Below, one piece after another: positions 17,016-23,452 of a stretch of 64,000 nt of DNA. Under the pieces are notes generated by a model. It was not told where the DNA came from. It was given only the letters and a program-made list of their open reading frames with translations, and did no database searches. Each line of letters begins with the position of its first letter. Position 1 is the first letter of the stretch. This DNA is from an uncultured delta proteobacterium (GTDB lineage Bacteria > Desulfobacterota > Binatia > Binatales > Binataceae): positions 1-64,000 of the forward strand of contig CAWEEQ010000003.1 of NCBI GenBank assembly GCA_963808235.1, in the 5' to 3' direction. The position numbers and the translations under genes were made by a program.

Positions 17016-18299
17016 ATGATTCAAAACGCTGTAATTCTCTCAACCGGCGACGAAATCACCACCGGCAAAGTTGTCGATACCAACGCGAACTACCTGTCCG
17101 ATAAGCTCGCCGAGATTGGAATCGATCTGGTCGCGGTGCTCACTGTCGGCGACGTGCCTGAGCGCCTTGAATGGGCGTGGCGAACGGCAATCGGAATGGG
17201 CGACGTAGTAATTTCTACCGGCGGGATCGGACCGACCGCCGACGACTTGACTACCGAAACGATCGCGCGGCTGGCCGGCGTGAAACTGTGGCGGGACGAG
17301 GCAACCGTCGATCACATGAAGCGGCTCTTCGCGACCATCGGTCGTCCGATGCCCGAGAACAACCTCAAGCAGGCGATGTTTCCCGAAGGCGCGACCGTCG
17401 TCCAGAACCCGCTCGGCACCGCGCCCGGCTTCAGGATGCCGATTACGATGAACGGCCATACCGCGAATCTGATCGTGCTGCCCGGCGTGCCGCGCGAGAT
17501 GAAACCGATGATGGAAAACACGGTGATTCCGTGGATCGGCGCCAATCGCGGCACCGACAAGGTCTACGCCGTGCGCATCTTCCAGACTTTCGGAATCAGC
17601 GAGTCCGCACTCGACGAGGCAGTCGCAGGCTTGATCAAACCGGAAGAAGCGAAAGTCTCGTTCCGCGCGAGCTTCCCGCAAATTTCGCTCAAGGTCAGGG
17701 TGGAAGGCGCGCCCGGAGAAGTCGATCGCAAACTCGACGAGCTGTCGCGCCGCGTGCGCGAGAAAATCTCTCAGTACGCGTACGCCGAGGGCGATGTCTC
17801 GATGGAGGAAGTAGTCGGGCGGCTGTTCGTCGAGAAAAATCTGACCCTTGCGATCGCGGAGTCATGCACCGGCGGCCTGATCGGGCATCGCATAACCAAC
17901 GTTCCCGGATGCTCGCGATACTTCAAGAGCGACCTGGTCACCTACTCCAACGACGTCAAGGAAGGCGTGCTCGGCGTCTCAGAGGAAACGCTCAGGGTCC
18001 ATGGCGCAGTGAGCGAAGAATGCGTGGGCGAAATGGCCGCTGGAGTACGCAAGCGCACCGGCGCGAGCGTCTCGGTCGCGACCTCGGGGATCGCTGGACC
18101 CGACGGCGGCACGCCGGACAAGCCGGTCGGCACGGTATGCATCGCGCTATCCGCCGACGATCAATCGTTCACGCGCCGCTACCAATTTCGCGGCACTCGC
18201 GATTGGGTCAAGCTGATCACGTCGCAGGTCGCGCTCGATTGGCTGCGCCGCTACGCACTCGGGATGCCGATAGCGGATTCGGCGCTGTTCCGTCGTTAA
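17016..18299 (+). CDS. cinA: Competence/damage-inducible protein CinA (MoCF-like + PncC domain)
   Basis: GDEITTGKVVDTN, TGGIGPTADDLT, LPGVPREM, AESCTGG, GIAGPDGG. Confidence 0.93.
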   Translation: MIQNAVILSTGDEITTGKVVDTNANYLSDKLAEIGIDLVAVLTVGDVPERLEWAWRTAIGMGDVVISTGGIGPTADDLTTETIARLAGVKLWRDEATVDHMKRLFATIGRPMPENNLKQAMFPEGATVVQNPLGTAPGFRMPITMNGHTANLIVLPGVPREMKPMMENTVIPWIGANRGTDKVYAVRIFQTFGISESALDEAVAGLIKPEEAKVSFRASFPQISLKVRVEGAPGEVDRKLDELSRRVREKISQYAYAEGDVSMEEVVGRLFVEKNLTLAIAESCTGGLIGHRITNVPGCSRYFKSDLVTYSNDVKEGVLGVSEETLRVHGAVSEECVGEMAAGVRKRTGASVSVATSGIAGPDGGTPDKPVGTVCIALSADDQSFTRRYQFRGTRDWVKLITSQVALDWLRRYALGMPIADSALFRR

Positions 18300-18670
18300 C
18301 GAACGCGCGCGTAGTTGATCAGATCGCTCCCCGTGCCCGCGAGCGCGAGCTTGCCCTTTCCCGCCGCGCACTCGACTGCGTTCGCCGCCGTCGCATCGGT
18401 GCATAGCACGACGTTAGTATCGCCGGTGAAGCACGAATCCGAGACCGTCGCGGCGCCCTGCGCGAGTTGCACGCGTCCGGCACATTGGTCGACCATCGCG
18501 GTTACATTTACACCGCCAAAAAAACTGTTCGCCGCGATAATTTGCGAAGGTCCCTCACCGGATCGGGCGTGCTTTCCCATCGCCTCCGGATGCGGCGGCG
18601 GATGACCGCATCCAGAGCCAATCAGCGCAATCACCGAGAATGCCGCAACCACTGTGTTTCCTGCTCGCAT
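18296..18670 (-). CDS. Cys-rich hypothetical lipoprotein
   Basis: Lipobox-like LIGSGC; four further Cys; ATG 2 bp after upstream stop. Confidence 0.65.
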   Translation of the reverse strand: MRAGNTVVAAFSVIALIGSGCGHPPPHPEAMGKHARSGEGPSQIIAANSFFGGVNVTAMVDQCAGRVQLAQGAATVSDSCFTGDTNVVLCTDATAANAVECAAGKGKLALAGTGSDLINYARVR

Positions 18671-18672
18671 AT

Positions 18673-19026
18673 TCACCAACCCCGCTTCACGGTGACGCCG
18701 CCGAACAGCGAGTACGCGAGAATGTCCAGCGGGAAAGGAGCGTCCTCATCGTCGACCGGTGCACTCAACGGCGGTGATTGCTGACGGCGCGGCTCGATGC
18801 TGCGGCCGCCGAACAGGCTGAAGCCGTCGAACATCACTTCTTCGTCGGGTCGCACTCTGACCTTGGCTCCGCCGAAAATCGCGACAACGGTGACCTCGAG
18901 CTCGGGCGGCGCGTAGGTCAGGTCGATGTCGAGTCCGCCGAAAAGCGCCAGGCCAAAGAGCCGCTCTCCAGAATGGAGCATGCTCCCGTCGATCTTGTTT
19001 CCGGAAAAGATGGCCACGCTCAGCAT
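18673..19026 (-). CDS. LiaF-C / 'toastrack'-like beta-solenoid protein
   Basis: Repeated (A/S)(L/I)FGG-x-x-(I/V) motifs: ALFGGLDIDL, AIFGGAKVRV, SLFGGRSI, SLFGGVTV. Confidence 0.65.
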   Translation of the reverse strand: MLSVAIFSGNKIDGSMLHSGERLFGLALFGGLDIDLTYAPPELEVTVVAIFGGAKVRVRPDEEVMFDGFSLFGGRSIEPRRQQSPPLSAPVDDEDAPFPLDILAYSLFGGVTVKRGW

Positions 19027-21786: not shown

Positions 21787-23336
21787 TTGCGTAACCTCGA
21801 AGTTTCGGTGGACAGCGGCGTCGTCGGCGCCGCGACGATTGGTCCGCCGGCATCGGCTTGACCATTGAGATTCTGCGTCGGCTGTTGCGCCGACTCGTCA
21901 CCAGTGGAATCAGCGCCCGACTCCGCCGCGTCGCGAACCGCGTCGCTAAGCGGTATCTCGAGTACGAACTCGGTGCCGACTCCGACCGTGCTGTGCACCT
22001 GGATAGTTCCACGATGCGAGTCGATCACTTTTTTTGCGACCCCAAGCCCAAGCCCGGTGCCGGTTTCCTTCGACGTATAGAATGGATTGAAAATCTTGCC
22101 GATCTTGTCGTCGGCAATTCCGCAGCCGTTGTCGCGAATCCTTACCGCCGCCATCCCGGCGCCGTTGTTCTGAATTGCGAACTCGAGTTTGCGCTCGCCC
22201 TTGGTCGATTCCATCGCGTCGATCGCATTGTCGATCATGTTCGAAAACACTTGCCTCAGCTTGTCGGCGTCGGCGCGAACCATCGGGCCGCTCAAATATG
22301 CGCGCGAGACGGCGACCGAGTTTGCCTCGAGCTTGCTGCGCATCTGGGTCAGCGCTCCGTCGAGCACCCAGGCCAGGTTCACGTTTGCGAATGCGTAGTC
22401 TTCTTCCTTCGCGTACTTGAGCAGATGCGACACGCTGCGCTCGACGCGCGCCAGTTCGTCGAGCGCGACCTTTGCGTACTCGACGTTTTCGTGAGAGGTC
22501 GGGTCCTCGCCCATCTGCTGCACCAGGCTCTTGGCCGCCGCGATTGGATTTCTGATTTCGTGCGCAAAGGTCGCCGTCAACTCATCGAGCGAGGCCTGCT
22601 TCTCGGTGCGCAGTTGTTCCTTTTCCTGCAATACCTCTCGTTTCACTTCGCGCTCTATTGCCGGCTCGAATACGCGCTGATGCACCCATCGCCATCCGTA
22701 CACCGCGGCGAAGTGGCTCGCGATTCCGAATCCCCATCCGAGCGCCGGCCATATGAACCATGGGTATCCGCCGAAGCCTCCGGTCAAAAGATTGATCACG
22801 AACAGGAAGCCGATGATGATTCCGTACCACATGAGATGGACGAAAAAGCCGGCCTCTGCGGTGGCGCGTTTGCGCGCGCGCTCGTAGCCCTGCCGCTCGG
22901 CGTCACTCTTGAACTGCGGCGGTGGCGGCAAATCCTGAGCGGGATCGAGATTGACGCCGCCGTATTTTTGCGTCTGACGATTGAACCGCGCGCGCATCTT
23001 GCGCTCGTACCGCGCGGACTTGGCTTCGAACTTCCGCGACATCCGTGATTCGAAATCGCGCTTGATCTTCGAGTGAAGATCGTTCGCGAACTGCTCCGCG
23101 TGCGTGCTCGCCGTCTTCTGCGCCGCCTCGCCCCACTTCGACCAATCGGTGTGCTTCGCCGCATCGGCCAACTTCGACCAGTCGCCACTCTTGGCTGCGT
23201 CGGTCCACTTCGTCCACTCGGCGTTCTTCCATTTCGAGTAGTCGCGATCGCCCCACTTCATCCAGCGGATTCGATTGCGCTTTCGATGTTGAACGACCGC
23301 GTAAATGATTAAAGCGATTATGAAGATGCCGAACAT
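21783..23336 (-). CDS. Sensor histidine kinase with N-terminal TM, Trp-rich repeats and 2TM-type membrane hairpin
   Basis: H-box FAHEIRNP, N-box NMIDNA, G1 DNGCGI, G2 [14 protein letters not shown]...FFVHL...[10 protein letters not shown] membrane hairpin; stop overlaps the regulator's TTG start. Confidence 0.92.
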
Positions 23337-23435
23337 CCTGCCTCACCTGGGGCCGGAAATGCCGGTCCGTATAATTGACTTAGCTCAGTGACCAGAGCGC
23401 TAACAATCTTGGTCATTTTCGTTTCCTACCTCTAG

Positions 23436-23452
23436 AGCAAGCACGATGCCGA
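23436..23452 (-). promoter_or_regulatory. Sigma54 (-24/-12) promoter of the kinase-regulator-pspA operon
   Basis: - strand TCGGCATCGTGCTTGCT has exact GG-N10-GC spacing and matches TGGCAC-N5-TTGCW; ~100 bp upstream of kinase start. Confidence 0.75.

Follow-up and report, generated by a model that had tools for sequence, protein, structure and literature searches.

Proteins of the PspA/IM30 family, which are ESCRT-III-like, are membrane-repair factors of ancient origin, and only for a few models is it known how their production is controlled. In Escherichia coli, PspA silences a receiver-less sigma-54 activator, and in Firmicutes a two-component system of the sigma-70 type is governed by LiaF. 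The contig of a Binatia-group soil bacterium analyzed here (CAWEEQ010000003.1, positions 1 to 64,000; the window) raises the question of how a pspA gene is controlled when it stands in one row with genes for a histidine kinase and an NtrC-type activator, on the minus strand between 18296 and 23336. We hold it moderately probable that this row is a sigma-54-dependent, phosphorelay-controlled PspA/Toastrack operon for the response to membrane stress. Four of its products contain domains that score above curated cut-offs, and a fifth was assigned to the Toastrack superfamily by profile and fold. Tight gene spacing, conserved regulatory sites and a rearranged relative of the locus (L019) lend further support.

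Predicted operon architecture and regulatory sites

An earlier note on this DNA had described six tightly spaced minus-strand genes, and both their coordinates and the gaps between them proved correct. In the order of transcription, the six open reading frames (ORFs) encode a histidine kinase, a sigma-54 activator, a methyltransferase, PspA, a 117-aa protein and a lipoprotein. The kinase and activator genes overlap by 4 nt, and the gaps that follow are 15, 59, 7 and 2 bp. The features of the locus, all on the minus strand, are as follows.

23514-23544, minus: upstream element resembling an activator site, three half-sites inside an inverted repeat
23437-23450, minus: sigma-54-type promoter, GGCATC-N3-YTTGC
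23337-23381, minus: near-invariant block of the 5' untranslated region (UTR), defined by alignments; includes the ribosome-binding site of the kinase gene
21783-23336, minus: sensor histidine kinase, 517 aa; Pfam 2TM, HisKA and HATPase_c
20332-21786, minus: NtrC-type response regulator/enhancer-binding protein (EBP), 484 aa; Pfam Response_reg, Sigma54_activat, AAA_lid_14 and HTH_8
19834-20316, minus: PEMT/ICMT-superfamily membrane methyltransferase, 160 aa; Pfam PEMT
19034-19774, minus: PspA/IM30 (ESCRT-III-like) protein, 246 aa, GTG start; Pfam PspA_IM30
18673-19026, minus: stand-alone soluble protein assigned as a mini-Toastrack by profile bridging and fold, 117 aa
18296-18670, minus: small Cys-rich putative lipoprotein, 124 aa; signal peptide and invariant Cys

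The -24/-12 promoter noticed earlier precedes this row of genes. Its GG (23450/23449) and GC (23438/23437) are separated by ten bases, and the sequence departs at one position from the sigma-54 consensus TGGCAC-N5-TTGCW. Transcription is predicted to start near 23425, which leaves a 5' UTR of about 89 nt. To place these sites in a comparative frame, we used 20 loci that a genome scan returned with two peptide patterns, both narrow and drawn from the Toastrack family, and the E. coli K-12 locus (L021). The 20 loci are all from Binatia-type metagenome-assembled genomes, and the names of homologues assign the window itself to the Binatia/Binataceae. In 12 of these 21 loci, GGCATC-N3-YTTGC is present in a single copy, which lies upstream of the kinase gene and on its strand. 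No locus besides these 12, among which is the rearranged L019, contains the kinase 5' region: L005 and L012 end earlier, six have a Toastrack paralogue only, and L021 is E. coli. The promoter GG and GC were invariant in all nine aligned upstream regions.

In the window, the specific motif has 2 matches as opposed to 0.15 expected. With 69 matches versus 63 expected, a looser sigma-54 pattern that tolerates one mismatch (TGGC-N7-TTGC) shows no enrichment and was set aside as being no evidence on its own. The second exact copy of the specific motif lies at 6891-6904 on the minus strand, about 340 nt upstream of the glutamine synthetase gene glnA (5122-6549, minus) and inside the 3' end of a DUF1646 ORF. 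The glnA gene is the classical sigma-54 target; the location of the motif fits a classical glnA sigma-54 promoter and a sigma-54-using organism.

Farther upstream of the operon, at 23514-23544, is the tripartite motif TGCAGT-N7-CTGC-N9-ACTGC, framed by a perfect 8-nt inverted repeat (arms 23512-23519 and 23538-23545). The repeat is located 64 nt upstream of the promoter GG, and the element is centered about 100 bp upstream of the predicted start. The motif matches the window once (0.00 expected) and was found once in 11 of the 12 loci with a kinase 5' region, in every case at a distance of 70-105 nt on the upstream side of the -24 element. In L019, TGCAG/CTGCA motifs judged by eye are differently arranged at a similar distance. 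The position and symmetry of the element fit a putative site for an enhancer-binding protein.

The block at 23337-23381, which occupies the ~45 nt before the kinase start, is almost invariant in all nine aligned loci and exceeds the rest of the intergenic region in conservation. RNAalifold found no compensatory pairs among the 20 predicted for it, and a search of Rfam gave no credible match, only three sub-threshold matches of the snoRNA type. It might serve as a basal promoter, as a translational operator or as a binding site for a protein.

The promoter and the activator site are well-supported predictions, and dependence on sigma-54 is what their sequences suggest. Since both precede the kinase gene, autoregulation is the natural reading. 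The autoregulated circuit that had been proposed thus gains a conserved promoter and a motif like an activator site, while its co-transcription and rpoN dependence stay at the level of prediction. Between 17800 and 23900, a scan for sigma-70-like promoters, which models one promoter type, returned none versus 1.1 expected. Nine terminator-like sites were present in the same interval, a number not above chance (7.1 expected); three are on the operon strand, all of them within coding sequence.

Gene order in related genomes

In 12 loci (L001, L003-L007, L009-L011 and L013-L015), tblastn with the window proteins found the six genes in the same order, followed by a convergent cinA gene; the kinase gene of L005 is cut by the contig end. 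L012 is a contig fragment with PspA, Toastrack, lipoprotein and cinA genes. Six other loci (L002, L008, L016, L017, L018 and L020) contain a Toastrack paralogue in other contexts. L019 is rearranged and encodes a kinase with 2TM, the activator, PspA, an unrelated 146-aa protein, the lipoprotein and the Toastrack protein, with neither the methyltransferase nor cinA. It is the sole independent gene arrangement, and it keeps the five core genes and the promoter. We considered the 146-aa gene of L019 as a second Toastrack gene and rejected it (BLAST E of 0.62; no Pfam match).

Operon conservation, which the earlier note had proposed to check across Binatota and related lineages, was found within the Binataceae. 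However, the unrelated flanks are equally syntenic in the 12 loci: SDR, DUF1634 and TauE genes upstream, cinA and pgpA (phosphatidylglycerophosphatase A) among those downstream, and also a cytidylate-kinase-like gene and an inositol phosphatase gene. Because of this, and because the genomes are close kin, synteny in the 12 loci is weak evidence of functional coupling. The divergent upstream gene tells more. In L001 (1501-2541, minus) and L013 (1619-2431, minus) it is replaced by another ORF (270-346 aa), and the replacement ends short of the conserved activator sites. Retention of the promoter and activator sites next to differing divergent genes counts as independent evidence.

These data bear on the possibility that the locus consists of two or more adjacent units. 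The kinase and activator would then drive their own promoter and perhaps distant targets, and the methyltransferase gene and the pspA-Toastrack-lipoprotein genes would be expressed separately, as neighbors by descent. The equal synteny of the flanks agrees with such an arrangement, as do a conserved segment in the 59-bp gap before pspA, the dispensability of the methyltransferase in L019 and the single promoter type modeled by the sigma-70 scan. On the other hand, that gap is the only one of its size, flanked by junctions of -4, 15, 7 and 2 bp, and the operon strand has no terminator-like site outside coding sequence. Moreover, L019 holds the kinase, activator, PspA, lipoprotein and Toastrack genes together after rearrangement, and PspA and Toastrack genes are linked to signaling systems across bacteria according to a systematic survey (PMC11237479). 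We regard separate units as unlikely.

The 59-nt gap between the methyltransferase and pspA genes (19775-19833, minus) contains a segment conserved right after the stop codon in 13 aligned sequences. The segment might act as an internal promoter or a processing site, or form a hairpin. A GG-N10-GC seen by eye at about 19828-19843, overlapping the methyltransferase stop codon, was rejected as a second sigma-54 promoter, with its spacing broken by an insertion of 3-4 nt in 12 aligned loci.

The kinase and the activator

The kinase matches the Pfam families 2TM (5e-18, residues 152-231), HisKA (6.2e-9) and HATPase_c (2.9e-26). An alignment of 13 sequences gives it an N-terminal transmembrane (TM) helix, a Lys/Trp-rich region, a conserved helix, a 2TM hairpin with a loop of ~8 residues, a helical linker and His259. 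No periplasmic sensor domain is evident in the protein. Judged by the positive-inside rule, which relates charge to membrane topology, and not by a topology tool, the kinase would be cytoplasmic apart from its N-terminus and the short 2TM loop. With this topology, it looks like an intramembrane-sensing kinase. Its best NCBIfam models are AtoS and ZraS, and it scores far below the cut-offs of both.

The N-terminal half of the kinase has 326 relatives. Among the 120 listed, named entries are nearly all Binatus or Binataceae, with a few labeled Acidoferrales, Acidoferrum or Patescibacteria. Residues ~25-75 (~23111-23264, minus) are rich in Trp and Lys and contain short repeats of the DWSK type, whose copy number is highly variable across relatives, several of which have none. 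Two of the 120 listed relatives, P0331 (781 aa) and P0357 (763 aa), are predicted kinase-activator fusions (2TM, HisKA, HATPase_c, REC and Sigma54_activat); they are either true fusions or frameshift or assembly artefacts at the 4-nt gene overlap.

The activator contains Response_reg (1.5e-31), Sigma54_activat (2.1e-77), AAA_lid_14 and HTH_8, a helix-turn-helix (HTH) of the Fis type. Read from the sequence, its receiver (REC) residues are D9/D10, D53, T81 and K103, with Walker A at 172-179 and GSFTGA at 219-224. These motifs and His259 of the kinase are all intact. The protein thus has the receiver with a phospho-acceptor Asp, the AAA+ domain with a GAFTGA-type loop and the Fis-type HTH that define NtrC-type two-component EBPs. 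The GSFTGA variant is given for a response-regulator EBP of a Desulfovibrio vulgaris two-component system in PMC4641369. The best solved relatives are the Aquifex NtrC1 structures 4l4u and 1ny5 (~1e-98). All NCBIfam equivalog cut-offs exceed the scores of the activator: ntrC, 457 versus 558.6 bits; AtoC, 450 versus 714; ZraR, 393 versus 760; and PspF (TIGR02974), 277.5 versus 443.55.

Could PspA nevertheless bind and inhibit the AAA+ domain of this activator, with phosphorylation as a second input, so that the system is a PspF/PspA circuit to which a receiver has been added? Over 330 alignment columns, the AAA+ core and E. coli PspF share 37% identity, and PspA is encoded in an operon that the activator probably drives. 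In PspF, the YLW patch (Y51, L52 and W56) serves as the docking site for PspA, and in the various AAA+ clades the region of the patch has kept its hydrophobicity (PMC3791423). The three residues align to F187, R188 and A192 of the activator, so that an aromatic residue is retained at the Y51 position but the other two are lost and the patch as such is not conserved. The shortfall against the PspF cut-off points the same way, and BLAST detected no significant similarity of the window PspA to E. coli PspA (E=5.3). EBPs controlled by a receiver are not known to need a trans inhibitor. Retention of E. coli-like feedback is in our view quite improbable.

PspA and a Toastrack domain without a membrane anchor

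The assignment of the 19034-19774 product to the PspA family, on which the earlier note had staked its proposal, is borne out. The protein matches Pfam PF04012 over residues 2-219 of 246 (2.6e-19; 70.2 bits versus a cut-off of 33.9) as well as solved Vipp1/PspA chains (6zvr, 5.6e-12). It falls below the proteobacterial equivalog TIGR02977 (32.9 versus 242.95 bits). The GTG start codon is preceded by a conserved GGAG ribosome-binding site.

The 117-aa protein contains five FGG-type (hydrophobic-FGG) repeats and has no TM segment; in an alignment, the members of its family are likewise soluble, measure about 115-135 aa and carry five repeats. For the window protein, neither Pfam nor NCBIfam gave a match even at E<=10. 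Eight of the 22 family members weakly match LiaF-like_C (PF09922; best E of 0.0025); the window protein is not among them and falls short of the Pfam gathering score. Searched against 1.84 billion representatives, the family profile found 1473 proteins at E<=1e-3. We examined 50 proteins sampled from 150 listed of the 1473, and 46 carry LiaF-like_C (E<=1e-3), mostly with a DUF1707/SHOCT-like domain and in two cases also with LiaF-TM. The same profile had no match at E<=10 among Protein Data Bank (PDB) sequences.

AlphaFold2 (AF2) modeled the protein as an all-beta stack of ten strands with a mean predicted local distance difference test (pLDDT) value of 86.4. The top Foldseek match in the PDB was 4qrk (E of 0.012, probability 1.00, TMq 0.63), followed by a match with an E of 2.1. 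Since the E value for 4qrk exceeds 0.001, this fold support is moderate. In PMC11237479, 4QRK is named as an exemplar of Toastrack, a domain under which DUF2154 (LiaF_C), DUF4097 and DUF2807 are brought together. With both a profile relationship to LiaF-like_C and a predicted single-stranded beta-helix fold like that of 4QRK, the protein is, on profile bridging and a structural model, a minimal stand-alone member of the Toastrack/LiaF_C superfamily. The label "LiaF-like" used earlier therefore suits its C-terminal/Toastrack domain and not the whole: a soluble protein lacking the LiaF-TM half is no LiaF orthologue. The composition claimed for the operon, a receiver-containing sigma-54 activator and a kinase together with PspA and a LiaF_C/Toastrack protein, is upheld by hidden Markov model scans, profile and fold.

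A complex prediction for PspA and the mini-Toastrack, run without controls, gave ipSAE values of 0.00 and 0.00 and is evidence neither way. Two of the paralogues have neighbors of their own. In L008, the paralogue (6857-7369, plus) is divergent to an HTH_3, unknown and Band_7/flotillin gene set (4078-6724, minus), another membrane-scaffold context. In L002, it lies at 3275-3673, about 1.5 kb downstream of a gene for a CAP12/Pycsar-type TIR effector domain (844-1737, plus; 1.4e-38).

The methyltransferase and the lipoprotein

Of the two families named for the methyltransferase, PEMT was confirmed (4.2e-12; 46.9 bits versus a cut-off of 25), whereas the ICMT match (0.0056) is below the cut-off. 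In NCBIfam, the protein has only weak matches, to isoprenylcysteine, LmtA and MddA methyltransferases.

The last gene product agrees with the Cys-rich lipoprotein described before. Its signal peptide ends G-S-G-C (Cys21), and five Cys (C21, C63, C80, C90 and C101) are invariant in an alignment of 11 sequences; by the PROSITE-type rule, the lipobox is putative. We found no Pfam or NCBIfam match even at E<=10, and the best ESM Atlas score, 0.75, gave no lead. The AF2 model has a pLDDT of 60.6, and residues 60-124 alone form a small beta domain with moderate confidence.

Together with pgpA 1.3 kb downstream of the operon, the presence of an enzyme of the PEMT superfamily and of a lipoprotein in which five Cys are invariant might suggest that lipid or lipoprotein remodeling of the envelope is the primary output, with the lipoprotein possibly an outer sensor as RcsF and NlpE are and PspA an auxiliary stabilizer, but L019 has PspA, lipoprotein and Toastrack genes and no methyltransferase gene, the kinase offers almost no periplasmic surface for a lipoprotein signal, and neither the methyltransferase nor the lipoprotein belongs to a recognizable functional family, which makes this very improbable.

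Relation to known envelope-stress systems

The enterobacterial Psp system (E. coli K-12 pspF || pspABCDE) resembles the Binatia operon in its PspA-family effector, its AAA+ EBP with a Fis-type HTH and its sigma-54 promoter, which in the Binatia operon is a predicted one. PspF is receiver-less and its gene divergent, whereas the Binatia activator has an N-terminal receiver and a cognate kinase and is encoded in the same orientation within the operon. The classical system has a sigma-54 promoter driving pspA; the Binatia locus has a conserved -24/-12 element before the first operon gene and no conserved one directly before pspA. In agreement with the earlier note, no PspB, PspC or PspF was found in 55 window ORFs of at least 70 aa or in 64 further ORFs of at least 50 aa between 15.5 and 26.5 kb. 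The YLW docking patch is not kept, and the Binatia PspA stands closer to proteins of the Vipp1 type than to its E. coli namesake.

With the Firmicute Lia system (Bacillus subtilis liaIH-liaGFSR), the operon shares a two-component system, a kinase without an extracellular sensor, a PspA-homologue effector, a LiaF_C/Toastrack protein and autoregulation, which for the Binatia operon is a prediction (PMC11237479 and PMC9239133 for Lia). The Lia regulator is a NarL-type REC-HTH protein, unlike the NtrC-type sigma-54 activator (REC, Sigma54_activat and HTH_8) of the Binatia operon, and the Binatia kinase has HisKA and Pfam 2TM and is not of the LiaS type. The soluble 117-aa Toastrack protein, without LiaF-TM, differs from LiaF. 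The ORFs scanned between 15.5 and 26.5 kb contained no LiaI-like anchor.

ZraSR/ZraPSR of enterobacteria follows the same regulatory logic: a membrane kinase acts on an NtrC-type sigma-54 response regulator, which controls a product that protects the envelope. In NCBIfam, the kinase core and the activator have ZraS and ZraR among their best-scoring models, but the scores are far below the equivalog cut-offs (154.3 versus 479 and 392.6 versus 760, respectively). No ZraP-like protein was found in the scanned ORFs; the Binatia effectors are PspA and the Toastrack protein, and the kinase has no periplasmic domain.

Operons of the form PspF||PspA-PspB-Toastrack have been published and likewise bring a sigma-54 EBP, PspA and Toastrack together at one locus (PMC11237479). 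These operons have a receiver-less PspF, PspB and membrane-anchored Toastracks; the Binatia operon has a kinase and REC activator, a soluble Toastrack and no PspB. Given such operons and the logic of ZraSR, the "third design" of the earlier note overstated the distance from known systems.

The same survey also reports two-component systems of the REC-HTH type in association with PspA, PspC or Toastrack (PMC11237479), and in Actinobacteria histidine kinases adjoin pspA (PMC9239133). The literature covered, which included these two systematic Psp surveys as far as accessible, contained no case of PspA together with a 2TM kinase and an NtrC-type activator that has a receiver; the full context tables, web application and OpARA data of the surveys might hold one. 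The text of PMC11237479 that was accessible and one supplement had nothing relevant on REC+NtrC, 2TM or PEMT contexts, and a literature search for Binatota together with PspA found no paper. Within that literature, the view that this is not a described system stands for the combination of a REC and NtrC-AAA activator with PspA, whereas each half has a published precedent. The operon is a lineage-specific recombination of known modules, with comparative support from one bacterial family.

A proposed circuit

How, then, might the operon work? The kinase lacks a periplasmic domain and has one TM helix, the Lys/Trp-rich stretch and the 2TM hairpin; its most likely input is the state of the cytoplasmic membrane itself. 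Going by the intact motifs, it would phosphorylate the activator receiver at D53. The activator would then assemble on the three-half-site element and remodel sigma-54 RNA polymerase at the -24/-12 promoter; the sites are conserved, and this is their presumed function. A single transcript of the six genes would supply more kinase and activator, a positive autoregulation, along with the four other products. PspA would repair or stabilize the membrane. If the mini-Toastrack behaves like LiaF and other Toastrack proteins, it may serve beneath the membrane as an adaptor or as a feedback element. The methyltransferase and disulfide-rich lipoprotein may modify or monitor the envelope. Control by phosphorylation would replace the E. 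coli mechanism, in which PspA restrains the receiver-less PspF.

Several points weigh against this circuit. We infer co-transcription, rpoN dependence, phosphotransfer and induction by stress from sequence, and rpoN is not among the window genes. The unrelated flanks are as syntenic as the operon, and the conserved 59-bp gap before pspA could hold a promoter of a type outside the model of our scan. The design was seen in Binatia alone, in a scan that used narrow peptide patterns. Finally, the roles of the methyltransferase, Toastrack protein and lipoprotein are guesses, in which we place much less confidence than in the core of the proposal.

An extension of the proposed circuit, which we find doubtful, would make the mini-Toastrack the feedback link. 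As a detachable LiaF-like governor, it would shuttle between PspA or the membrane and the kinase, and the status of PspA would be reported via the kinase and not via a W56-type patch of the activator. If this were true, membrane packing would be read directly by the 2TM hairpin and the Trp/Lys-rich juxtamembrane region of the kinase, and the operon would amount to a sigma-54 "three-component" Psp system. It might also belong to a wider class, as yet undescribed, that is spread among uncultured phyla.

By uniting sigma-54 machinery, a phosphorelay and a minimal LiaF_C/Toastrack protein, the Binatia operon would show that the two regulatory solutions known from E. coli and Firmicutes can be recombined. 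It offers a natural test case for whether feedback from PspA to the activator is dispensable once a kinase controls the activator, and for the role of a Toastrack domain freed from its membrane anchor. For a phylum without a genetic system, the promoter and activator sites are a first concrete prediction of regulatory sites.

Neighboring genes and antisense reading frames

At their stop codons, the lipoprotein gene and cinA (17016-18299, plus), which is convergent to it, share 4 nt (18296-18299), so that no space is left for a terminator between them. On the other side of the operon, a divergent gene (23639-24076, plus) encodes a hydrophobic protein of ~140 aa of no known family. No counterpart was found in any compared locus (tblastn, E<=1e-5), and we therefore do not count it as a member of the system. 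PADLOC detected no defense system, only generic AAA+ and coiled-coil similarities.

Three long ORFs run antisense to the operon, at 19765-21861, 21858-23048 and 18926-19768 on the plus strand (698, 396 and 280 aa, respectively). They have no Pfam match and were taken as artefacts of high GC content. A gene caller based on length prefers these long antisense ORFs over the true operon genes.

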